Virus record (IMG/VR): IMGVR_UViG_3300049731_000149
Coordinates: 1-25,662 of that record
Length of the DNA: 25,662 nucleotides
Origin: a virus
Taxonomy: Duplodnaviria > Caudoviricetes
Direction: 5' to 3' (one strand)
Made by a program: the position numbers and the translations under genes
Part shown: one piece after another, positions 6,038 through 25,662 of the stretch
How the letters are laid out: each line of letters begins with the position of its first letter
Position numbering within the stretch: position 1 is the stretch's first letter
Notes under the pieces: model-generated
The model's database searches: none
What the model was told of the DNA's origin: nothing
The model's input: the letters and a program-made list of their open reading frames with translations, nothing else

Positions 6038-6080
6038 TCACGCAACCTTTGCCAAACGGCGCGTCACGTGAGGGACGCCC

Positions 6081-7385
6081 GTGACCGGAGCCGACACACA
6101 GGTCATTGATGGGATTCTCAAGGACTACTACGAGGATTTCGTCTCTGAACAAGTCAACAACAAAAACCAGCTGAAAGACCTGTTCGGGTTCAAGGACTCG
6201 GACTTCGCGGGTAGGGAAAAAGTCTACACCGCGCACGTGTCGCGCAACACCTCACCCTTCTTCAGCGGTGAGGATGGCGCGTTCGCAGAAGCCGGCGCGC
6301 AGGGTCACGTCCAGGTGCGTGTCGGGCAACGGAAGCTGATGGGCCGCATCCGCCTCACCTATGAGGCGATGCACGATTCGTTGCAGAGTCGCGGGGCCTT
6401 CAAGCAGGCGCGGCGCGACGAGAATCAGGGGCTCATCAAGGACATCGCGCGCAAAGAGGAATACGCCCTGGCCACCGAAGGCCGCGGCATTCTCGCGCTC
6501 ATCGATGAAGTCACGCCCTCAGGCGATACGACCCTCGAGCTCGACGCGCCCGGCGGCATCACCAACGACAACTTCGGCAATCGCTTTTGCCAAGTGGGTA
6601 TGTATGTCGGGGCGGTCAATCCTGGCACCGGCGCATTGCGCACCACCGTGCGGAAGATCACGGCCTGCAACAGCGATGGGACCGACGTCACCCTCGATGG
6701 CGTCGGCGGCTCGACCTGGGCAAACAATGACTACCTCGTCCAGTGTGCCAATAGCGACGTCACCGATGTGCTCGATTCGAGCTACGAGCATGCGTTCTGG
6801 GGCCTGATGGCCCTGGTCGATGACGGCACCTATCGCAACAACTACTTCGGCGTCGACCGCTCCGTCTGGGGGAACTTCTCGAGCTACGTCAAGCCCTCGA
6901 CCGGCACGCTGAGTTTCGACCTGTTGCAGCAAGTGGCCGACATCCTCGATCAGAAACTCGGATCGACGATCGACCTGCTACTCGCGCATCACTCCACGCG
7001 CCGCCTCTACATCAAGATGCTGCTGGGTGACCGCCGCTTCGTCGGCAATCACGTGCAGCGTCCCGATGGCGGCACGGTCGCCTTTACCCAGGGCGATCTG
7101 ACGATGGGCGAAGTGCCCATCAAAGCGATTCGTGATTTCCCACTCGACGTGATGATGCTGTTGGACAAAGCGAATTCCGGCTGGGTGGTCTACGAATCAG
7201 AAAAGGGCAAGTGGGTGGACGAGGACGGTCAGATTCTCGTCCGCGCCGGCGTCGGATCCGCGGCGCGCGATGCCTTCGAGGCGTGGTACCGGATCAGAAG
7301 GCAATATCACCTCAGGTATCCGGGGTACAACGCACGACTCGACGCGATTACCGGTCAGTCGTTGGTCATCGTCCGCGCTGAATAA
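6081..7385 (+). CDS. Major capsid protein (HK97 fold expected)
   Basis: 434 aa. N-terminal IDGILKDYY, GRIRLTYEAM, GLMALVDDG, YFGVDRS and C-terminal NARLDAIT resemble P22-like capsid proteins. Positioned after the scaffold and followed by a strong hairpin. Confidence 0.88.
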   Translation: MTGADTQVIDGILKDYYEDFVSEQVNNKNQLKDLFGFKDSDFAGREKVYTAHVSRNTSPFFSGEDGAFAEAGAQGHVQVRVGQRKLMGRIRLTYEAMHDSLQSRGAFKQARRDENQGLIKDIARKEEYALATEGRGILALIDEVTPSGDTTLELDAPGGITNDNFGNRFCQVGMYVGAVNPGTGALRTTVRKITACNSDGTDVTLDGVGGSTWANNDYLVQCANSDVTDVLDSSYEHAFWGLMALVDDGTYRNNYFGVDRSVWGNFSSYVKPSTGTLSFDLLQQVADILDQKLGSTIDLLLAHHSTRRLYIKMLLGDRRFVGNHVQRPDGGTVAFTQGDLTMGEVPIKAIRDFPLDVMMLLDKANSGWVVYESEKGKWVDEDGQILVRAGVGSAARDAFEAWYRIRRQYHLRYPGYNARLDAITGQSLVIVRAE

Positions 7386-10424: not shown

Positions 10425-11129
10425 ATGGCGACGACGCTGAATTCGATCATCTATCAGGCCCGCAAGGTGCTCCTCGAGGACACGCCGTCGTTCTGGACCG
10501 ACGCCGAGCTTCTCGACATTGCGCTCAACGGCTGTCGCGATTTGTGGAAAGGGATCATCGACGTCTACCAGGATCACTTTCTCACGCTGGATGAATCGAA
10601 TGTGAGCCTCGCCGCCAATGCGACGACAGCTTCCGGGGTGCCGAGTGACCTGTTTCGCGTGAAGTTCATCGAACCACGCGACCGCTCCACCTACATCAAC
10701 ACCTTCTTTTTCCCGCGCGACTATGCCAGCGACGAATTCCGTCGTGCCCGCACCCTCACTGGCCAGGACGCGACGGGCTGCATTTTCTTCTACGATGTGG
10801 TCGGCGCGGGCCCCCCGGTGGCCGCGCCATCGCTCTACATCTCCCCGAAGACCAACGCGGCGCTCAATCTGGCGGTCGGCTACATCGCCGGCATTTCCAG
10901 CAGTTTGACCACCGCGAGTAACAACCCGATTCCCGGCGAAACCGACAATGCGCTCAAAGCCTGGACCATTGCGTGGGCGCGCGCCAAGGACCGCGAGGAC
11001 CGCTCGCCAGATCCCGAATGGTTGAAGGTCTATGGCGACGAAAAACTCGGCATCATCACAGCGGTGACGCCACGCCAGGAAGACGAACCCGATTACGTCG
11101 AGGGGCTGTTCGATGGCTATGAATTTTGA
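10425..11129 (+). CDS. Head-tail adaptor (functional equivalent of P22 gp4 / T7 gp11)
   Basis: N-terminal TLNSIIYQARKVLLE...FWTDAELLDIALNGCRDLW helices, central YISPKT beta domain, C-terminal IPGETDNALKAWTIAWARAKD helix. Size and position are typical. Confidence 0.78.
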   Translation: MATTLNSIIYQARKVLLEDTPSFWTDAELLDIALNGCRDLWKGIIDVYQDHFLTLDESNVSLAANATTASGVPSDLFRVKFIEPRDRSTYINTFFFPRDYASDEFRRARTLTGQDATGCIFFYDVVGAGPPVAAPSLYISPKTNAALNLAVGYIAGISSSLTTASNNPIPGETDNALKAWTIAWARAKDREDRSPDPEWLKVYGDEKLGIITAVTPRQEDEPDYVEGLFDGYEF

Positions 11130-11148
11130 TTCATTGTTGGAGACGAGA

Positions 11149-11610
11149 ATGAAGATGCTGTTTCTTATCCTTGTGCTGCTGGTCAGCACCCCTGCATGGG
11201 CTCAGACGACGAATCCCTGCACGGAACCGATTGGCTTCCAGATGTTGCCCGATGGTGAAGGGCAAGTCTTCGTGCCGCTGACCGAACACACCATGCTCGA
11301 GCCCGATGGGAAAACGCCACGCGTGGGCGAGTATTCCTACGCGCTGTTCAACGAAGGCACCAATCCGGACAATGGCACCCCGATTCAGGGACCAACGACC
11401 GTCCCGAAAAGCGCCTTCGCCTTGGTCGCCGGCACACCGGACTGTTATCAGGCCGATCTTCCGCAGACCATTCCAATGGATGTTCGTTTAGTGGCGGCAT
11501 TAAAAGCTCGCGGACCGAATGGGGAGTCAGGATGGTCCCCCATTTCAAACCCTTTCTCATCAGTGCCCAATGTGCCGAAACCTCCGGGGAAGCCGGCAAT
11601 CCGCCCGTAA
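11149..11610 (+). CDS. Signal-peptide protein with Fn3/Ig-like domain (153 aa; start revised to 11149)
   Basis: GGAGA SD. MKMLFLILVLLVSTPAWA|Q is a classic Sec/SPase I signal. Two Cys; Fn3-like terminal motif LKARGPNGESGWS. Confidence 0.8.
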   Translation: MKMLFLILVLLVSTPAWAQTTNPCTEPIGFQMLPDGEGQVFVPLTEHTMLEPDGKTPRVGEYSYALFNEGTNPDNGTPIQGPTTVPKSAFALVAGTPDCYQADLPQTIPMDVRLVAALKARGPNGESGWSPISNPFSSVPNVPKPPGKPAIRP

Positions 11611-11906
11611 CGATTGCGATTCATACCTTCACGTCGCAGGTGTCGCTGTCGTCGCCTCAGGGCCTCTATGTGACATTCACCGTGGGCGGACCGGTGAAAG
11701 TGTCGTCGTTAGAACTGGACCTGCTGGGCGATGGCTACCCGGAATGGGTTCAGAATTTCCCCGGCGAGCAAGACGGCCGCGAATGGACCGAAGGGAGCGT
11801 CATGCCCTACAAGACCGGGACGTTCGAACTGGTGATGCGCGCGCGAGATGTGCGCAACTGCTTCGCGCAGACCGGCGTCAAGCGCATCGTGACGGTGGTT
11901 CCATGA
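11532..11906 (+). CDS. Ig-like beta domain; independent gene or -1 frameshift extension of 11149..11610
   Basis: Fills 11610-11903; its stop overlaps the next ATG (ATGA). GTFELVMRARD is an Ig/PKD-like strand; two Cys; 79-nt overlap with the upstream gene. Confidence 0.7.
   Translation: MVPHFKPFLISAQCAETSGEAGNPPVTIAIHTFTSQVSLSSPQGLYVTFTVGGPVKVSSLELDLLGDGYPEWVQNFPGEQDGREWTEGSVMPYKTGTFELVMRARDVRNCFAQTGVKRIVTVVP
11547..11556 (+). other. Candidate -1 programmed ribosomal frameshift site
   Basis: AAACCCTTTC gives two overlapping X XXY YYZ heptamers (A AAC CCT, C CCT TTC) correctly phased with 11149..11610. The -1 frame is open to 11906. Confidence 0.5.
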
Positions 11907-12595
11907 ACGCGCTGGTCCTGACGCTCGCGGCACAGGTCATTCTGCCGATGCCGCCCCAGATGACGATCGGCTATTCGCTGCCCGTCACGCAGGATTTGGG
12001 CTGCACTGAGTATTGGGTCAGCACGACCGTGAAGCTGGCCTGGAAACCCGTCGAAGACCACCAGACCATCTTCATCGAGGATATGGTGTTTGCGCAGGAG
12101 GTGCCGCAATTCTGGACGCTCTCGAGCTACGAGATTCACGTCTTCAAGAACGATAAATTCGTCAGCCAAATTGGGGTGCCCCCGCCGGCCACGAGTTACA
12201 CCTACAAAGTCAGCGCGACAGCGACCACGGGCGGGCGCTACTGTTTCAAAGTCTATATGCGCGGCTTCTATGAATTCCTGCACAAGCCGCGCGAGGAAAC
12301 GTGGCACAGCAACGTCATCACGCAGACGTTCCCCGCCGCCACATGGCACACGTTGACATGGCCGCCGGTCCTGGGCATTGAACTGAATGGCTATCAGGTG
12401 CGCGCCACGACCGACCCGGCCTTCATTGATAACTTCCTACTCATCGCGGGTGAAACCGATGAAGTCACCAATCCCTCGGTGACCTTCTATGTGGCCAAGC
12501 CTTACACGGTCTATCAAAAAATCAGTGCCATCAAACTGCTGGACACCGGTCCGCTCCCCAAAACACCCGGCCGCATGACCGTGACGAGGAAATGA
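11903..12595 (+). CDS. Protein with two Fn3-like domains and a short hydrophobic N-terminus (230 aa; start revised from 11519)
   Basis: ATGA coupling. MNALVLTLAAQ; VKLAWKP...SYEIHV...TSYTY...YCFKVYMRG; second repeat TLTWPPV...NGYQVR. Confidence 0.78.
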   Translation: MNALVLTLAAQVILPMPPQMTIGYSLPVTQDLGCTEYWVSTTVKLAWKPVEDHQTIFIEDMVFAQEVPQFWTLSSYEIHVFKNDKFVSQIGVPPPATSYTYKVSATATTGGRYCFKVYMRGFYEFLHKPREETWHSNVITQTFPAATWHTLTWPPVLGIELNGYQVRATTDPAFIDNFLLIAGETDEVTNPSVTFYVAKPYTVYQKISAIKLLDTGPLPKTPGRMTVTRK

Positions 12596-12945
12596 CCATG
12601 CTGACGTTCCTCGTGCTGCTGGTGGCGCAAACCACGCCCACGGTCAAACCGCTCGATTCGTATTGGTCGGCCAGCAGCTGCTTGACGGCGAACACGGTGC
12701 CGAACGCACCCTATACGTTGGCGTGGGATCCACTGCCGAGCCCGCAAGACCTAGTGCAATCCAATGGGAAGACCACGACGTGGACGCTCGTCGACTACGA
12801 ACTCTACATCACGGTGCTCACGCCCGGTAACATGCGCACCTTCACGCCGCGCACGTCAACGACGGAGTACGTCTTCACGACGCCAGAAGCCGGGCAATTG
12901 TGCTTCTCGGTGATGGGCAGAGGCACCTATTTGTATTTGCCGTGA
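12592..12945 (+). CDS. Single Fn3-like domain protein with hydrophobic N-terminus; paralog of domain 1 of 11903..12595
   Basis: MTMLTFLVLLVAQ; C...TLAWDP...WTLVDYELYI...TEYVF...GQLCFSVMGRGTY aligns with the upstream gene. Confidence 0.78.
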   Translation: MTMLTFLVLLVAQTTPTVKPLDSYWSASSCLTANTVPNAPYTLAWDPLPSPQDLVQSNGKTTTWTLVDYELYITVLTPGNMRTFTPRTSTTEYVFTTPEAGQLCFSVMGRGTYLYLP

Positions 12946-12952
12946 GCGAACC

Positions 12953-13174
12953 GTGCCAGGGAAAATCAACATCTACAACCTCGGTCAGCTGGGCGTCGAT
13001 ATTGTCAATGCGCCGTTTCAGGTTGAAGACGGCGCTTTTCTCTCGGCGCAGAACGGACAGATTTCCAACAAGGATGACCAGCTGGCCATCCGCAAACGCG
13101 ATGGCATGAGCAAGGTCAACACCACCGCTGCTGCCGGTACGGTGCTAGCGTTTTTCATGGTTGCGAGTGACTGA
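12953..13174 (+). CDS. Stand-alone N-terminal module of tail nozzle (73 aa)
   Basis: GVDIVNAPFQVEDGAFLSAQNG...AIRKRDGMSKV matches the G..P..i.....N......kR.G start of P22 gp10 / T7 gp12-type proteins. Paralog of the next gene's first ~70 aa. Confidence 0.68.
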   Translation: MPGKINIYNLGQLGVDIVNAPFQVEDGAFLSAQNGQISNKDDQLAIRKRDGMSKVNTTAAAGTVLAFFMVASD

Positions 13175-14388
13175 TGCCTGGGAAGGTCAACATTTACAAC
13201 CCCGGTGCCTTCGGCGTGCAGCGCACCAACAATCCCTTGCAAGTCAAGGACGGCGAACTGCTGTCGTCACAAAACGGCGTGCCGCGCCTCTATCGGGGCC
13301 GACTCGCGTTGTCGAAGCGCGACGGGATGAACAAAATCAACGCGACCACCGCGGCCGGCGCGATTCTCGCGATTTACAACCTCCCCTTCAGCGAGGAAGA
13401 AGAAGTCAGCGGCGATCCGGTGGTGTTCCTTGCCGGCTCGAGCACCGGCACCGACCGGATTCAAACCTCGGAGGATGGCTCGACCTGGACGCTGCGCAAT
13501 GACAACCTGGGCGCGGGCTCCCCCGCGTTCGGGGTGCGCTGCATTGCCTACTCGCCATCGCTCGATCTGCTGGTGGCGGTCGGTCACAACGGGTCGCAGA
13601 ATGCGTGGTTTGCGACGTGTGACAATGCCGACCTCGACACGTGGACCATCGGTACGGCTGGCACCACCCCCGCGGCGCACAATTGGGACACGGTATGTTG
13701 GTCAGAGACACTTGGCCTGTTCGTCGCGATGGCGCAGGTCGCCACACCGAGTAAAATTGCGACCTCCCCGGACGGCACGACGTGGACGTTCCGCACGAAC
13801 GCGCATGCCTCTCACACCTATATCGAAGTGATTTGGGTCGACGCGCTGGGCATCTTCATCGGCATTTCCGATACGGCTGGCAGCACGCGGGGCCACATGG
13901 TGACCTCGCCCGATGGGATCACCTGGACCGAACGCACCTACGATGCGACGGCGACCGCCAGCATGGGCGTCTCCGGCGTTGCATGGTCGGATAGCCAGGG
14001 AGTCGCGGTGGCGTGCGTGCGCTCGACGGGCGTCGGCGTGGCGAACAAGTTTTTCACGTCGCCCGATGGCATCACGTGGACGCGTCGGACCGCGCCCTTC
14101 GACGTCCAATACACTGACGTCGAATGGTCCGCCGATCTGGGCCTGTTCGTCGCGGTCGCGCAAACCGGGACCAACGCGCAACAAATCGCGACCTCCCCGG
14201 ATGGCGTGACCTGGACGGCGCGATCGTGCCCCACCGCGCGCAGCTGGAAATATGTGAAGTGGCGGAGCGCACAGGCGGCATTTTTCATCGTTGGCACTGG
14301 CACCGACAAACTCATCACCTCGACCGATGGCACGACCTGGACGGAAATCTCGACGGCCATCAGCCAAGACTGGCAGGTAGTGATCTGA
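13174..14388 (+). CDS. Nozzle N-terminal module fused to an Asp-box (BNR) beta-propeller; probable receptor-binding protein
   Basis: First ~70 aa repeat the upstream gene, then an EEEE linker and seven repeats: TSEDGSTWT, TCDNADLDTWT, TSPDGTTWT, TSPDGITWT x2, TSPDGVTWT, TSTDGTTWT. Confidence 0.82.
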   Translation: MPGKVNIYNPGAFGVQRTNNPLQVKDGELLSSQNGVPRLYRGRLALSKRDGMNKINATTAAGAILAIYNLPFSEEEEVSGDPVVFLAGSSTGTDRIQTSEDGSTWTLRNDNLGAGSPAFGVRCIAYSPSLDLLVAVGHNGSQNAWFATCDNADLDTWTIGTAGTTPAAHNWDTVCWSETLGLFVAMAQVATPSKIATSPDGTTWTFRTNAHASHTYIEVIWVDALGIFIGISDTAGSTRGHMVTSPDGITWTERTYDATATASMGVSGVAWSDSQGVAVACVRSTGVGVANKFFTSPDGITWTRRTAPFDVQYTDVEWSADLGLFVAVAQTGTNAQQIATSPDGVTWTARSCPTARSWKYVKWRSAQAAFFIVGTGTDKLITSTDGTTWTEISTAISQDWQVVI

Positions 14389-15990
14389 ATGCCGTTCTAT
14401 CTGATTCACGCCAACACGTCGCTGCAAAAGGTCACGCCGGCCGGCGACATCACCACGTTGACGCTGCCCTCTGGTGTCACGATGGTCGACACGCGGCCGG
14501 CACGGTTTGCCACTTTGGCCGGCACCGTCGTGGTCGTCAACGCCGTCTCGAAAAACGTGGCCATCAACGCGGCCACACTCGCCGCGCGCCTGTTGACCAT
14601 CGATGGGCCCTCGGCCGCGCCGACTGTCGCGGCGGCCACGTCCTCCGGCAGCTTTTTCGGCAGTTATCGCTTCGCCTACACCTACGCGATTACCAGTGGC
14701 GACACGGTGCTCTCCGAAAGCCCGTTCTCGCCCATCGCCGGCCCGCTGGTGCTCCAGAATCGCCAAGTGGCCATGTCAGCCGTCACCGTTTCCGGCACGA
14801 GTGGAGTGAATGCGCGCATCATCTACATGACCACCAACAACGGCGAAACCTATTTCGAAGTGGAGCGCATCGAGGACAACACTACGACCTCGGTCACCTT
14901 CGACGGCTCCGATTACGACCTGGGCTTGCTCGCGGAGGCGTCCAGTCACGCCGAGAACCCACCGGGCCACGACACCACCGACCGCTTTCGCATCATTACC
15001 GCCTGGAAAGACCGGCTGTTCGCCAGCCCGGACGACGATCCCGATGATGTGTGGTTCTCCGGCAACCGCGAAGTGTCGTCCTGGGGGGATGTCTTCACCG
15101 TGCCCCCCGCGGGCGAAGACCAGTACGGCGTGACCGCCTTCATGGCGCGACGCGACGAACTGGTGCTGGCGAAACGTCGCCGGCTGTGGAAACTGGTGGG
15201 CGACACGCCCGAAGACTACGAGCAAGTCTCGATTGATCCGGCGGTGGGCGCGATGGTGCAGGAAGGCTGCATCGTCATTGAGGATGTCTGCTATTTCCTG
15301 GGGGAAAACGGGTTTTACGAATACGGCCCGGCGGGTGTCCGCAACCTGTCGCGCGAGAACGTGCATCCCTGGTTCACGAGCGATGATTTTTTCAACCGCG
15401 CCAAATTCGCAAATGCCTTCTGCAAGTACAACGCCTTGTACGACACCATCGAATTGCACCTCGCCGCCGCCGGATCCACCGACATCGACCGGTGGGTCAC
15501 CTACCATCGCGGGAGTCAGCAGTGGTTCGGGCCGCATAAGACGGGGGCCTTCACGCCGACTGCTGGGGCGACGATGGACGACACCAACGGCTTCAATCGC
15601 CCCGTCATTGGCTCGAGCGCCGGATTCATTTACGCCGAAAACTACTCGACGGCTTCGGACGACGGGACGGCGATTGAATTCGATGCGATTCCGAAATGGC
15701 ACAGCGGCAACACGCCCGACATTCAGAAGCTGTTTGGCCAAGCGGCCATCCTCTGCGCGATTGAATCGGGTGGCACGCTGAGTCTGGTCCCGAAAGTGGG
15801 GGGCCTGGACGCTTCGGCCCAGACCACCATTTCGCTCGCGCTCACCAGCGGCCAGCATCGCACCCGGCATTTGGGAACCGGGCGCTTGCTGCAAATGCGG
15901 TTCTACAACAACGAGAACAATCGGGCGGTGATGCTCTACGGCTACGAAGTGCCGTTCCATGAACTGTCGCGGCGGTCGGTAGCGCCATGA
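14389..15990 (+). CDS. Tail nozzle / tail tubular protein B body lacking the usual N-terminal module
   Basis: WKDRLFAS, VWFS, GEDQYGVTAF, CYFLGENGFYEY propeller blades; SYRFAYTY...ESPFSP and ARIIYMT insert; C-terminal DDGTAIEF...WHSGNTPDIQKLF...GRLLQMRF as in P22 gp10-like proteins. Confidence 0.8.
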   Translation: MPFYLIHANTSLQKVTPAGDITTLTLPSGVTMVDTRPARFATLAGTVVVVNAVSKNVAINAATLAARLLTIDGPSAAPTVAAATSSGSFFGSYRFAYTYAITSGDTVLSESPFSPIAGPLVLQNRQVAMSAVTVSGTSGVNARIIYMTTNNGETYFEVERIEDNTTTSVTFDGSDYDLGLLAEASSHAENPPGHDTTDRFRIITAWKDRLFASPDDDPDDVWFSGNREVSSWGDVFTVPPAGEDQYGVTAFMARRDELVLAKRRRLWKLVGDTPEDYEQVSIDPAVGAMVQEGCIVIEDVCYFLGENGFYEYGPAGVRNLSRENVHPWFTSDDFFNRAKFANAFCKYNALYDTIELHLAAAGSTDIDRWVTYHRGSQQWFGPHKTGAFTPTAGATMDDTNGFNRPVIGSSAGFIYAENYSTASDDGTAIEFDAIPKWHSGNTPDIQKLFGQAAILCAIESGGTLSLVPKVGGLDASAQTTISLALTSGQHRTRHLGTGRLLQMRFYNNENNRAVMLYGYEVPFHELSRRSVAP

Positions 15991-17033
15991 AGCTCCAGAA
16001 GCCGCACCCGATTCGTGACCTCGAGATTAAGGAAACCGCGCAGGACATCGACGATAACTTCGATGCGGTCTGGGGCGCACTGCGCGAGCTCAATAGCCGC
16101 CTGGGCGTGAGTGAAGACGACATCGCCATCCTCGAGGCGGCTCCCGATCCGGTCCAGAAAGTCATTCTCGCGCTCGACGGCACGCCGGGCGATGATGGGA
16201 TGCCGGGCCCCCGCGGCGCAACGGGCATCACCGGGGCGACCGGGGCCCTGGGCCCGCCAGGATTCGACGGCGCGGACGGCGCGGATTTTTGGGGCGTTCT
16301 GGCCGCCGCCAGCAGCGAAGGCGAAGTCACCTTCACCACCACCGGCAACATTGACGACCTCGACTTCGGCAACGTGCCGCTCATCCGCATGAACAACGCG
16401 TCGCTTGCGACGCTGCGCGGACTACGCGCCGGGCGCGCGGGCCAGCTGGTCACGATCGTGTCGGTCGGGGCGGGCCAAGTGGATTTGGCCCATCAGAACG
16501 CCGGCTCCGTGGCCGCGAATCGCCTGACCAACATCGCGACCAGTGCCGTGACGTCGTTGTCCGCCGGCACCGGGCTCGCCACGTTCCGCTACGACAACAC
16601 GACGCAAAGCTGGCGGCTCATCGAGCATGAACAAGGGGCCTGGATCACGCCGTCGTTCAGTGCCGGCGATTACACCGCCAATGGCGCGATGACCTGGACG
16701 GTCGCCTCTGGCGACGTCGCGCTGATGGCCTACTACCTCAAAGGCCGTCAACTCTCGGTCCTGTTCGAACTCAACACCACCACGACGGGGGGTGTGGCCT
16801 CGACGGCGCTGCGGCGCACGGTGCCAGGCGGCTTCACGATTGCGAGCGGGGTCCGCGCGTTTTACCGCGTCATCAATGCCGGCGTGACCGTCACCTCACC
16901 GCTGGGCATGGCCTACGCCGCCGCCGCGTCCACCTATATCGAATTCCTGCGCGATGGCAGCGGCACGGCCAATTGGACCATCGGCACTGATAACGTCGGC
17001 ATTCTCGGCAGTCTGTTTACCGACGTGCAGTAG
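15987..17033 (+). CDS. Tail fibre with coiled coil, collagen-like segment and C-terminal head domains
   Basis: IDDNFDAVWGALRELNSRL coiled coil; 12 consecutive G-X-Y triplets (16179-16286); beta-rich C-terminus (GAWITPSF, YYLKGRQLSV). Confidence 0.8.
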   Translation: MKLQKPHPIRDLEIKETAQDIDDNFDAVWGALRELNSRLGVSEDDIAILEAAPDPVQKVILALDGTPGDDGMPGPRGATGITGATGALGPPGFDGADGADFWGVLAAASSEGEVTFTTTGNIDDLDFGNVPLIRMNNASLATLRGLRAGRAGQLVTIVSVGAGQVDLAHQNAGSVAANRLTNIATSAVTSLSAGTGLATFRYDNTTQSWRLIEHEQGAWITPSFSAGDYTANGAMTWTVASGDVALMAYYLKGRQLSVLFELNTTTTGGVASTALRRTVPGGFTIASGVRAFYRVINAGVTVTSPLGMAYAAAASTYIEFLRDGSGTANWTIGTDNVGILGSLFTDVQ

Positions 17034-19414: not shown

Positions 19415-20457
19415 TGCCATATCAATCGCCGTTTTCCACCCTACAACAGATGATTCGCGACCGGCGCTTCGGTGACCTCGTGGACCGTGGTAACGACTTC
19501 GAGGTAGACGACCTGATCGACCGCGGCCAGGACCGCGATGCGATGCTGTTGCAGGACGACCAGGAATTGCGTTTGCGTCCGGAGCAATACGAAACCCTGC
19601 GACGCTCGCCGTTTTCTGAGCCCACGCCACCGCGCTCGAGTCAACCGCCGATGCCGCCATCGCGGCGCGAGTTTCCGTTCGAAGTGCTGCGCAAATCGAC
19701 GGGCAATCTCGCTCCGATGCTCAACCGCTATGGGCTGGCCGACTACGGCAACGTCGAAGAAGGCACGGGCCCGCGTGGACCGTCATCCGTCTTCCCAGGG
19801 GCGGGCGCGCGTGCGGGGACCAAGGTGACGATGTATGGCGACCCGATCGACGCCGAAGTCTCGCGGATGAAGCAGCTGCGTCAGCAAGCCGTCGACTCAC
19901 GCGCCCTGAATCAACGGTACCTGGAAAGCCATCTCGGCCCCGAAACCGCGGCGTTCAAAGCGGACCCCTACCGTTCCATGCTGGCGCTCGAATCCGGTCA
20001 GCGAAGCTACGAGCGAGCGAACCCCTTGCCCCCACAACCGGGCATGTTGAGCAACGTGGAAGCCGGCGCGGTGCTGCGCGATTTTATGAGTGGCGACGCA
20101 CGGGCGCGGGAAGCCGCCCGCGCGCAAGCCATCAGCGGCGCGGAAACGTTCATGGATCCGACCGTGACCGCCGGCCGCGGATTGGCCCGGCGCGAAGCCG
20201 AGCTCGATGCCCAGCAAAAGGGGTACTGGGATGTCGCTGGTCGGCTGGCCGCGAGCCAGAACTTCTTCCCGACGCCAGAACAGACCGAGCCGTACTTCCC
20301 GTCTGGTGGCGGGCAGGCGGGCCCACCCGGCGCGGACGCCGGCGCGAAGACGCTCAGCCTTGATGACCTCAGGATCATCGCGCAAATGCAGGGGTTGACG
20401 CTGGATCAGGCCGTCGCCGTCGCACAGCGACGAGGTTGGACGATCGGTGGACGGTAA
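19414..20457 (+). CDS. Probable ejection protein (347 aa; start revised from 19366)
   Basis: GGAGG SD with TAATG overlap; begins MPYQSPF; C-terminal mini-domain TLSLDDLRIIAQMQGLTLDQAVAVAQRRGWTI. Confidence 0.72.
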   Translation: MPYQSPFSTLQQMIRDRRFGDLVDRGNDFEVDDLIDRGQDRDAMLLQDDQELRLRPEQYETLRRSPFSEPTPPRSSQPPMPPSRREFPFEVLRKSTGNLAPMLNRYGLADYGNVEEGTGPRGPSSVFPGAGARAGTKVTMYGDPIDAEVSRMKQLRQQAVDSRALNQRYLESHLGPETAAFKADPYRSMLALESGQRSYERANPLPPQPGMLSNVEAGAVLRDFMSGDARAREAARAQAISGAETFMDPTVTAGRGLARREAELDAQQKGYWDVAGRLAASQNFFPTPEQTEPYFPSGGGQAGPPGADAGAKTLSLDDLRIIAQMQGLTLDQAVAVAQRRGWTIGGR

Positions 20458-23400: not shown

Positions 23401-25662
23401 CGGCTGAACCACGTCCCATCGCGCCGTTGCGGGCCTTGCCAGAAGACGCATCGGTCGCCGATATGCAACGGATGGCGGTGCAGCGTGCCGCCGACAACTT
23501 CGGCGCGGTCAGTTTCCCCGTGGAGGAAGTACAGCAGAAGGCCGTCCAGCGGATGGCCGATTTGCTCGACCAGCGCGGACAAACAGCCGCGCGGGGCTTC
23601 GTCCCAGACGTCGAACCCACGACCTCAAACATTCCCGCCACACTACGCCAGTTACGTTTCGATGATCCAGCCCTGCGTCAATTACACGTCGGGTACGTGA
23701 TGGGCGACCGCGAGGCGCGTGAACAATTGGTCGATGCTGTACGTCGCGACCCGAACATTGCCGCTCGATTTCAAGACCAGATCCGACAGGCATTCGGTGA
23801 TGAATTCACCGTCTACCGTGGGGCGACATCGGAACCGAACAGGCCATCGGCATTCACCCTGGACCGGAACATCGCTGAAGGGTTCGCACAGACGGAAGCC
23901 GAGGCGACGGGCAAGCCTGGACGCGTCTTTAGCTTCAAAGCCACACCTGAAGCGGTCCTGTTCCCCGGCGAGTACACCCAATCAGAACTCGTCATCGACC
24001 CGACACTGTTGCGAACGCGAACAGGAGAAGCCGGATTCGTCAGCCCACGCCTGGGCGCATCACTCGGTGGCGGCGTCGTGGGCGCGACCGCGGGCGGTGC
24101 GACTGGTGCCGCCACCGCTGATGAAGACGCCACCCCCGAAGAACGGCTCGCGCGATTCTTTGCCGGCGCAGCCACGGGCGCAGCGGCCGGCGCGGGTGGG
24201 GCGGCCACCTTAGCGAAGTTCCTGTCGCGCGGTGCACCACGCACGGCCATCGAAGCGGCGCGCACGCGAGGCGTCAGCCAGGAAGAAATCACCGACACGC
24301 TCAAAGGCATCACGCGCGAACAGCAACTGAAAGGGTTGCCGGCCATCGGTGGGCGAGCTCGCGCGAAAGACACGGTGGTCGAATTCACCGGCGAACGACC
24401 GGTGCCACCGACCCAACCGATGCCGAAGGAGCAACGCGAAACGTGGTTGAGAATCGAAAAATTCCCACAGGCATTGCAGCAGCCCTTGAAAGAGCTAGGC
24501 GACTCCATCGGTGAACTGCAACTGGAACAGCAGCGCCGCGGTCGGCAATCCCTCGAGCGTCGAGACGCGCTGGCCGAGCAACTCCGTGTCAACGCCAGTA
24601 AGGTGCTCAAACCGGGAACCACCCTGAACTCGGAGGAAACGCGCGCCTACACCAACGCACTCGCCGCCGTCGTCCACGAATCGCAGGAGGCGAAGGCCCG
24701 CTACGACGCGACCGGCAATTACGAGGATGGGCATCGCGCCGTGCAACTCGACGCCGCGCGGGCGGCCTTGCTCTCGTCCGTCGTTGGCGCGCGGAGTGAG
24801 GCGGGCCGCTCACTCGCCGCGTGGCGGGCCCTGGTCAACGTCATGCCGGCGGAAGTGCGACTCGCCAGTGAATTCATGTCGCGTGGTCGGCTGCGCGCGT
24901 CGATGGATGAAGTCTCGGAACGCCTGGGGCAGATTCCCAAAGACCCGACCGAAGCCGTGAAGTATCTCGCCCAGATGGAAAAGCAGGGATGGGGCGAGTC
25001 CGCGTTCAATTACTACATGGCGAACATCCTGTCGGGCATCAAAACCCACGAACGCAACGTGTTGGGCAACGCGTTCAACACCATCTCGCGATTCGCCATC
25101 AAAGGCACGACCGCCGCTCCGGTCGATCTGGTGAAATCCATGCTCACCGGCAAGCCGCGTGAAGTCTTCGCCGGCGAAAGCGCGCAGGAAGCCGCGGGCG
25201 CGTATGCCGCGGCCGGTTCCGCGATCCGCGATGCGTTCGACACGATGCGACACGGCTTCTCTCCGAAGGCCCTGGAAGAAGGACTAGCCGGCATTACCCC
25301 GCTCTATATCCCCAAGAAAGAATTCGTCGGTGGCGCGGCCAACCCGTTCAATCTGGTCGGTCGCACCCTCGAGGCCGGCGACCGCTTTTTCGTGACCCTC
25401 AATCGCGGGGCGGAACTCTACGGACAAAGCTATGCCATCGCCAGGAAGGAAGGACTCGCCCGCCAGCTGAAAGGCCGCGCGCTACAAGACTACGTGGCGT
25501 CGCGCTCTGTCGACCTTCGCGCCAACCCAGGCGAGGAGTTACAGCGGTCGACGTTGAAGGCCGCCGAAAAATCCGCGTATCGCGAAGACCCTGGTCCGCT
25601 AGCCAATCAAATCATTGCGCTGAAGAAACACGTCCCCGCGATGGGATTCGTGGTGCCGTTTG
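20457..25662 (+). CDS. Giant polyvalent internal virion/DNA-transfer protein (>1735 aa, truncated by the window; not in the ORF track): glycine zippers, ParB-like domain, ART-like domain, helical core
   Basis: Manual translation of frame 3 from ATG 20457 (TAATG overlap) found no stop. DPTTYQFK...VEQWDP...MVADGHQR (ParB-like); VYRG / SAFT...FA / QSE (ART-like); SEAGRSL, YYMANILSGIKTHERNVLGN, AGDRFF, VVPF helical core. Confidence 0.88.
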   Translation, partial: MPYRDPFRDIDFDFDDAVRRLRASRRPGPPAGDVDFDIDSAVRDLRAGRLKAPPNPAGPDEPDDDRSWGDTAIATAARVVPSIAGGVAGAALGNVPGAAIGGAAGGAFGEWLAEEYEKARGLRKEVDPRSVAVEAALGAVPLGKTASWGRAALKGAGMGVTGSTAHSVVERGELPSLEEAALSAGFGGVFGGGIHAAADRFGRFLSGRRAPAADLPAGTPGGPQGPVDFPDARTSQTYQDTLAMRTADQDAARAMAVARARGMVDPQTGEVTRPQGSGFLDYEDWDAEFRSEQRRPSVSPESGTRMFEPPPPDAPLGQLQPRPLTGLQRYLQEDAAIQADVRERGHVFPPGPRQPDRFDLATVPPVEASVPRSILEAEVPPIPPWEEVDPRRALPAEAAMQALIPSRYLRPGSQAARRRENEALAEFLRVNLTRPDVPPSPPSGPAPEAPPRPPTMTVPRIEGYHKLGGRLLPIYEVSGDDVTLDPTTYQFKESDVRGRTGALKGVEQWDPTAGSSKPIILHKRADGRLMVADGHQRVNKWQELKAAGADLPPLRAIVLDEAEGFDVAQVRRISSLQNIREGSGEPTDIAKLLRTGQLSQQEAATMPRGSVAGPKLAQGESLATLSDQAFQAVINKEVPSQWGAMVARSRATPEQQLSVIRALAKADIGNDVEADAFVKALLSDDFEQVTMRDMFGESTQAVSLAENIAKIVGKVNARLAREKRAFGKVVKEASVLKGAGNVLAEEENVARAGKAQSALEQFELLKDQKGTHTREAMKALAARMVRGEATLNQAVDEILPALQRDAQGEPFTLRAPTEAQPTAAAAAVEEPTGPTRAELEAEGQGSMFGEEPPAPLDFDAAKNKQVHRQLTEGMGRLTDDEIRYLDSFDEFGKPLSRADRGDESGFVRTQLGGRLAGGVTGGVLGGTAGVATADEEATPQERLGRFLAGAAAGGIAGAAGGGRVARALTRETGEAIERRAGTAEPRPIAPLRALPEDASVADMQRMAVQRAADNFGAVSFPVEEVQQKAVQRMADLLDQRGQTAARGFVPDVEPTTSNIPATLRQLRFDDPALRQLHVGYVMGDREAREQLVDAVRRDPNIAARFQDQIRQAFGDEFTVYRGATSEPNRPSAFTLDRNIAEGFAQTEAEATGKPGRVFSFKATPEAVLFPGEYTQSELVIDPTLLRTRTGEAGFVSPRLGASLGGGVVGATAGGATGAATADEDATPEERLARFFAGAATGAAAGAGGAATLAKFLSRGAPRTAIEAARTRGVSQEEITDTLKGITREQQLKGLPAIGGRARAKDTVVEFTGERPVPPTQPMPKEQRETWLRIEKFPQALQQPLKELGDSIGELQLEQQRRGRQSLERRDALAEQLRVNASKVLKPGTTLNSEETRAYTNALAAVVHESQEAKARYDATGNYEDGHRAVQLDAARAALLSSVVGARSEAGRSLAAWRALVNVMPAEVRLASEFMSRGRLRASMDEVSERLGQIPKDPTEAVKYLAQMEKQGWGESAFNYYMANILSGIKTHERNVLGNAFNTISRFAIKGTTAAPVDLVKSMLTGKPREVFAGESAQEAAGAYAAAGSAIRDAFDTMRHGFSPKALEEGLAGITPLYIPKKEFVGGAANPFNLVGRTLEAGDRFFVTLNRGAELYGQSYAIARKEGLARQLKGRALQDYVASRSVDLRANPGEELQRSTLKAAEKSAYREDPGPLANQIIALKKHVPAMGFVVPF
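23163..23340 (+). repeat. Glycine-zipper hairpin repeat, copy 1
   Basis: ESGFVRTQLGGRLAGGVTGGVLGGTAGVATADEEATPQERLGRFLAGAAAGGIAGAAGG; DNA similarity to copy 2 (gccaccgccgatgaagaagccactccgcaagaacg). Confidence 0.85.
24027..24204 (+). repeat. Glycine-zipper hairpin repeat, copy 2
   Basis: EAGFVSPRLGASLGGGVVGATAGGATGAATADEDATPEERLARFFAGAATGAAAGAGGA; DNA gccaccgctgatgaagacgccacccccgaagaacg. Confidence 0.85.

Follow-up and report, generated by a model that had tools for sequence, protein, structure and literature searches.

A putative split phage tail nozzle with two paralogous N-terminal modules, one of which carries a beta-propeller

Introduction

Phage tail nozzles have been regarded as homohexamers, and since 2026 also as units with a fixed pair of chains. 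The N-terminal 45 residues of T7 gp12 supply three platform strands and its first propeller strand closes blade 1 (PMC6702177); in the SU10 nozzle, blades 1-3 lie far from the tail axis and a short-fibre dock extends from blade 1 (PMC9509320); and the crAss001 muzzle has one propeller, not two (PMC10172136). Two cryogenic electron microscopy (cryo-EM) studies describe split forms: gp39 (nozzle-rope) and gp42 (nozzle-base) of Pseudomonas podophage A1002 (PMC13730344), and the heterodimeric gp30:gp31 nozzle of Xanthomonas phage PhiXacm4-11 (bioRxiv 10.64898/2026.02.16.706137). Here we analyze positions 1 to 25,662 of IMG/VR virus record IMGVR_UViG_3300049731_000149 (Duplodnaviria; Caudoviricetes), a stretch of 25,662 nucleotides (nt) that we call the window. 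Three adjacent genes in it appear to encode a nozzle body without its N-terminus and two copies of a ~70-amino-acid (aa) module that would complete it, one bare and one extended by a propeller payload. A first-pass annotation, made from the sequence alone, had proposed such a system against the background that P22 gp10/T7 gp12-type nozzles are normally single chains assembled as hexamers; both split precedents date from 2026.

Results

A nozzle body that lacks its N-terminal strands

All three open reading frames (ORFs) lie on the + strand, with coordinates and lengths that agree with the first-pass annotation:

12953..13174, + strand: bare nozzle N-terminal module, 73 aa, GTG start; class A (D16, I17, A28 and an acidic loop at 36-46)
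13174..14388, + strand: 404-aa protein, a second module copy plus payload
13174..13383, + strand: the second module copy, at the start of the 404-aa protein; class B (Q16, R17, E28 and a basic loop)
13384..14388, + strand: acidic linker and seven-repeat Asp-box beta-propeller payload, assigned from its repeats and its structure neighbours in the Atlas
14389..15990, + strand: nozzle body, 533 aa, assigned from an AlphaFold2 (AF2) model, Foldseek and a Foldseek-independent structure search

The stop of the 73-aa gene and the start of the 404-aa gene overlap as TGATG, and the ATG of the 533-aa gene directly abuts the stop of the 404-aa gene.

The 533-aa protein has 238 homologs, and among the 120 listed nearly all are 525-538 aa long and cover 98-100% of the query. 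Its AF2 model, built with 110 sequences, reaches a pLDDT of 92.4 and a pTM of 0.84, and the top 18 Foldseek matches to this model are podophage tail chains throughout. In the Foldseek-independent search, model residues 1 to ~529 align with 11 solved tail chains at Z 18-26, and body residue 1 falls at chain residue 60-87 in 11/11 phage-tail chains among the matches listed. Against Pa223 it falls at residue 65 (Z 26.4, root-mean-square deviation 3.6, 391 residues aligned); elsewhere the body starts at residue 68 of SU10, 64 of VP1, 78 of crAss001, 65 of Sf6, 63 of GP4, 83 of Carin-1, 60 of Pam1, 87 of LME-1, 87 of A4 and 72 of HRP29. The protein encoded from 14389 is thus what the first-pass annotation took it to be, a nozzle without its N-terminus, and not a complete nozzle on its own.

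In the model, a beta-propeller spans residues ~1-420, probably with a beta-sandwich inserted at ~70-190, and C-terminal platform strands span ~429-528. The propeller and C-terminal platform of the podovirus nozzle fold are therefore present, and the N-terminal platform strands are absent from the chain; the absent portion corresponds to the N-terminal strands of T7 gp12. Because these strands reside on separate genes, the body would work like a nozzle but is not a member of the single-chain group. Sequence searches returned no Pfam match and no credible PDB match for the body; it matches phrog_3287 (E 2.5e-5), and a feature neighbour in the Atlas carries Phage_stabilise (PF11134) at 0.93. A single body gene was found in each of the 5/5 records searched, so that the two modules face one partner.

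The ~70-aa module as the missing piece

The first-pass annotation had noticed that two adjacent genes open with the same ~70-aa module, and the N-termini of the 73-aa and 404-aa proteins indeed share 54% identity over 68 aa (E 6e-23). A complex of the bare module with the body is predicted with a score of 0.88, against 0.00 for the best of 3 controls; the mark used for this score is reached by 116/157 solved complexes and by 2/215 mismatched pairs. At least 97% of the contacts agree between runs, and the partner pLDDT is at least 84. The strongest predicted contacts join module residues 33-34 to body residues 429-434, 52-56 to 414-416 and 64-68 to 5-8, and the body offers an exposed, extended groove with about 310 predicted contacts to the bare module. 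The predicted contacts are those expected of platform strands and a blade-1 strand. Because the halves of a split gene can pass through their likeness to solved nozzles, we read the complex score as a measure of fit, not of binding.

Profile comparison gives the module a relationship to nozzle N-termini. By hhalign, its profile is similar to that of the N-terminal regions of six single-chain nozzle relatives (probability 63.6%, E 6.7e-5), which were found through locus L150; taken as a single sequence, L150 matches the module weakly (E 0.028), and the remainder of L150 matches the body at 99.1%. When the PDB is searched with the profile of these six relatives, the sole match (E 0.066) is the cyanophage A4 nozzle at residues 27-80, a segment that lies just before residue 87, where the body alignment starts.

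Modules accompany the body across relatives

We clustered 141 loci and the window at 90% body identity into 100 clusters, of which 36 were dropped because they had <1500 nt upstream or a cut body. A module lies upstream of the body in 64/64 evaluable clusters: 47 have one payload module, 8 (window included) have a bare and a payload module, 7 have a short module only, 1 has two payload copies and 1 has the module fused to the body. Further fusions came from 13 matches, 10 of which are full-length 919-949-aa chains of module, propeller and body. Together with the complex prediction, these fusions and the constant co-occurrence point to two products that complete one unit by strand complementation, and we are highly confident of a split nozzle that the ~70-aa module completes in trans, as the first-pass annotation had proposed.

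A search with the module profile yielded 648 clusters at 50% identity. The module begins within the first 15 residues in all 150 matches listed, 126 of which are 340-500 aa long; a module followed by a ~330-aa propeller is the family norm. As this is also the usual state in the survey (47/64), the bare copy would be a derived addition.

The family takes several other forms. Six of the seven short-module-only cases form a clade in which an 85-93-aa module ends after the first propeller strand (L050 3850-7001, L053 3745-7001, L055 3756-6998, L057, L058 and L061); the next gene, which encodes 770-1240 aa with IPT/TIG or Asp-box extensions, supplies the remainder of the propeller at its C-terminal end, making a putative three-piece nozzle unit. 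In the seventh, L014, a family 2 glycosyltransferase gene (6063-6998) stands in the payload's place between a 104-aa near-bare module and the body, and this 95%-complete record has one module match. In a quick, midpoint-rooted body tree, the 8 two-copy genomes fall within one clade of 11 (support 96) alongside L014, with its near-bare module only, and L015 and L018, with a payload module only. Six fused rows form one clade (100) nested among split forms, which, under the midpoint root, suggests re-fusion.

Three further observations concern the architecture of these chains. At L121 (994-3777) and in P0125-P0135, module, propeller and body form one chain with no Met at the junction. Tandem payload-bearing module copies occur at L016 4712-6999 and L145 1-2366; in L145, the contig edge truncates the first copy. 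In P0091, P0092 (713 aa) and P0107 (615 aa), the nozzle body itself has additional domains inserted into it, another way of decorating the nozzle.

The two module copies are conserved and specialized

The bare gene is intact in 8/8 two-copy clusters, which span 53-76% body identity, and its ratio of nonsynonymous to synonymous substitution rates (dN/dS) is about 0.26 (4 unsaturated of 6 pairs), compared with 0.16-0.47 for the body. These sequence comparisons indicate that the bare gene is under purifying selection and is not a non-conserved remnant; such a remnant, unexpressed, is what the first-pass annotation had named as refuting its proposal.

Each copy has its own signature in the two-copy genomes. 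Bare copies have D at position 16, where payload copies have N/Q (8/8), position 17 is I/L in the bare copy versus R in the payload copy (7/8), and position 28 is small in the bare copy versus E/D in the payload copy (8/8). The net charge of loop 36-46 runs from -5 to -1 in bare copies and from 0 to +3 in payload copies (8/8), the acidic loop of the bare copy being the usual state of the family. Among module representatives, of which 126/152 sequences were parsed in a set that partly overlaps the surveyed loci, 22 proteins carry R17; all of these have a long extension, 20 have an acidic residue 28 and 0 have a negative loop. The payload copy retains the invariant residues G14, N34 and R49.

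Likeness between copies is divided along the module. Over the body-touching residues 46-70, the two copies of one genome are 0.60 alike, versus 0.38-0.47 across genomes, whereas over residues 16-45 likeness follows class rather than genome. Such a division would be expected of copies that fit the same body but face different neighbours, although old gene conversion could also produce it. With class-specific residues in all 8 two-copy genomes, the copies probably share a slot but not a role; the word 'interchangeable', which the first-pass annotation had applied to them, is not supported.

A hypervariable propeller payload

The 404-aa protein had been described as continuing into a seven-repeat Asp-box propeller, and we recovered six canonical repeats and one degenerate repeat of the S/T-x-D-G-x-T/S-W type of Asp-box (BNR) propellers, at ~45-50-aa spacing. 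They start at residues 98, 148 (degenerate), 197, 244, 295, 340 and 382. In the ESM Atlas, the model of residues ~76-404 resembles clusters of propellers, with single-domain rows at TM 0.78-0.93.

Variable payloads in related phages, which the first-pass annotation had listed as a check, were readily found. We compared payloads between pairs at 45-80% body identity, counting as homologous those with at least 200 aa aligned at E <=1e-10 and excluding L016, L042 and L047 from both pair sets. Payloads are recognizably homologous in 8/63 pairs inside the clade that contains the two-copy genomes versus 166/186 pairs outside it, at similar body identity. L011 and L067, for example, share 76% body identity and no BLAST-detectable payload similarity. 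The R17-type payloads (n=22) fall into 10 groups, the biggest of which (9) is Asp-box-rich and resembles that of the window.

Genomic neighbourhood and provenance

The window is a phage head-tail module with genes for a terminase, a major capsid protein, a probable adaptor, the two modules, the nozzle body, a collagen-bearing fibre-like protein and a very long internal-virion-like protein. Two of these neighbouring genes are:

10425..11129, + strand: probable head-tail adaptor, 234 aa, with a weak match to the structural protein family phrog_399; its adaptor role is suggested by synteny
15987..17033, + strand: tail-fibre-like gene that contains a short collagen repeat and is coupled to the nozzle body

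The homolog of the 234-aa adaptor gene in L012 matches phrog_399 at E 1.8e-6, and in several relatives the module gene lies directly 3' of the adaptor gene. The nozzle genes thus occupy the position of a nozzle, after the adaptor and before the fibre and ejection genes, the adaptor and ejection labels being weak matches. Between the probable adaptor and the module, at 11113-12945, are three small ORFs (165, ~230 and 117 aa), each of which opens with hydrophobic residues resembling a signal peptide and is predicted to be rich in sequence of the beta-strand type; they have no Pfam or PHROG match. A 2126-aa ORF begins at 20457, runs off the window at 25662 and continues in the 50-kb record G004 (L143 2978-9355); it has a match to phrog_10691 (E 7e-27) and a weak one to an internal virion protein, and is a probable ejection protein on this sequence evidence. 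Upstream of the window in G004, a 627-aa ORF (L142 22-1902) has a weak C-terminal B-type lectin match under the Pfam cut-off.

The window is 100% identical (0 mismatches) to a portion of G004, which also codes for an integrase, RecT and RusA, and every sampled word of it is present in 18 DNA runs, which may be the source samples; the gene layout is therefore not an assembly artefact. All 24/24 runs listed with window DNA are labelled soil metagenome. RNA runs X19-X22 contain short contigs, 99% identical, across the region, with the bare-gene bin covered in two runs, although contigs of this kind cannot show transcription. Neither the body nor the module has a match among 50,697 annotated phage records, and no cultured phage matches. 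Matches to genome bins (6 loci, 3 of them at 37-42% identity, in bins titled Fervidifonticultor, Phycisphaerales and Vicinamibacterales) were not accepted as host evidence.

Discussion

We propose a nozzle that consists of a body without its first ~70 residues and two separately encoded copies of the missing piece, plugs that would complete it by strand complementation. According to the prediction, the bare module provides the platform strands of the N-terminus as well as the first blade-1 strand of the propeller. Both copies would be present in virions, where they likely divide the six positions of the nozzle ring between them, and the payload may exit from blade 1, on the outer face to which the short fibre of SU10 docks. 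Since the payload follows the blade-1 strand, and blade 1 of SU10 lies far from the tail axis, the payload likely points outward; its hypervariability and this presumed outer position suggest that it probably binds the host surface. On balance, and with considerable reserve, we favor the reading that both plugs enter one ring, in which the bare copy would secure assembly and the other would show a variable binding domain at <6 positions. Tunable stoichiometry, receptor binding and host-range swapping, as envisaged in the first-pass annotation, may be properties of such a system.

The acidic and basic loops may bias the copies towards a particular arrangement, such as alternation, instead of a random one. 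Taken further, this leads to a more elaborate and doubtful version, an ordered hetero-ring with one body gene and two oppositely charged plugs that alternate, so that a fixed subset would show a swappable receptor-binding propeller; the six doubly split relatives would use the same trick one level out, the plug's first propeller strand hooking a separate 770-1240-aa adhesin-like protein.

Several results weigh against the shared ring or the assignments beneath it. The complex prediction covers the bare copy only, and the same slot for the payload copy is an extrapolation from it. In sequence searches the module has no direct Pfam, PHROG or PDB match, and its sequence link to solved nozzles runs through two weak steps. 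The AF2 model of the natural fusion L121 (pTM 0.43) leaves the module unplaced, with most of residues 1-81 under pLDDT 50; residues 82-393 of that model fold as a closed propeller, and fold searches with the model return generic propellers (residues 82-393) or uncharacterized viral proteins. The module tree is unresolved and does not part bare and payload copies into two clades (4 changes each), and the 8 two-copy genomes amount to about four lineages, not 8 independent cases. In 47/64 relatives a propeller apparently sits on each module, so a blank is not required on steric grounds alone. Payload divergence also occurs in the single-copy clade members L015 and L018, so payload turnover and the presence of a bare copy do not strictly go together. 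Finally, the payload propeller has no Pfam match.

Four other explanations deserve consideration. The bare module could be a temporary donor-strand chaperone that is later displaced by the payload copy, leaving six payloads in mature virions. Donor-strand exchange in pili offers a parallel. The exposed, extended groove on the body would suit such a placeholder, in several relatives the adaptor gene and the bare gene downstream of it are coupled, and the relatives outside the clade appear to carry six propellers; yet the 47 single-payload phages need no placeholder, and L014, with a near-bare module only, implies that a bare module can probably be a final partner. The bare copy also keeps the usual acidic loop of the family, which suggests that it keeps its contacts in the virion, and we consider a chaperone role unlikely.

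We are similarly skeptical that the bare module fills all six slots while the payload copy docks at another tail site or serves as a minor, optional part. In favor of this view, R17 and the basic loop are features of payload copies specifically, and the payload can vary freely, as it would if it were dispensable. However, the payload copy keeps the invariant G14, N34 and R49 and tracks its own genome's bare copy at 46-70, and the 5/5 records searched hold no second body-like gene to receive it.

Both single-copy states occur within the clade, and class-specific surfaces could favor like-with-like packing, so two virion types, with either bare or payload nozzles and little mixing within a ring, might serve as bet-hedging between host states. 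The opposite loop charges would more readily favor mixing, however, and the module genes are adjacent and coupled, so that both proteins would be made in the same cell; we give this scheme very little credence. Least probable of all is that the bare gene is a role-less leftover of tandem duplication, or that read-through or frameshifting joins the pieces during translation: in the window, the payload stop and the body start share a reading frame, and the bare gene there has a GTG start and a weak ribosome-binding site, but the gene is intact and constrained across the two-copy clusters, and the payload-body gaps in these 8 genomes (0 in 2, -1 in 5 and +3 in 1) conserve no junction frame, which argues against conserved read-through.

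If the shared ring is correct, paralogous plugs for one slot would let a phage vary both the kind and the amount of its tail-tip display and leave the DNA gate untouched. The module family is large, at 648 clusters, but none of its members comes from a cultured phage, and neither Pfam nor PHROG has a model for it. Because it shows fused, split, doubly split and duplicated states, the evolution of plug-in display should be traceable within it. In addition, a 70-aa tag that is predicted to dock into a 530-aa scaffold is tractable in Escherichia coli without the host.

Our searches of the literature, with subscription journals and bioRxiv supplements outside reach, found no nozzle with duplicated alternative modules for one slot. 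Among known systems, the single-chain nozzles (T7 gp12, SU10, P22 gp10, Sf6, Pa223, VP1 and the crAss001 muzzle) share the platform and seven-bladed propeller fold with the system described here, but carry the N-terminal strands in the same chain, and their extra domains are fixed insertions, not plug-ins. PhiXacm4-11 resembles it in having two-chain nozzle units in a hexamer, extra radial domains and relatives with fused forms; it differs in being built from two large interwoven halves at a fixed 1:1, with neither a small plug nor alternative partners. A1002 is alike in that platform and propeller are completed in trans by beta-strand complementation of two products, one of which has an attachment function. 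There, the cut lies near the C-terminus, gp42 keeps the N-terminal platform and most of the propeller, and the partner is single and fixed. In the present system, the cut removes the first ~70 aa, and one body would be served by two paralogs, of which one is bare and the other bears a variable propeller; neither the breakpoint nor the single fixed partner of A1002 and PhiXacm4-11 is shared. Split nozzles are thus already published, and two alternative plugs for one slot would be the new aspect.

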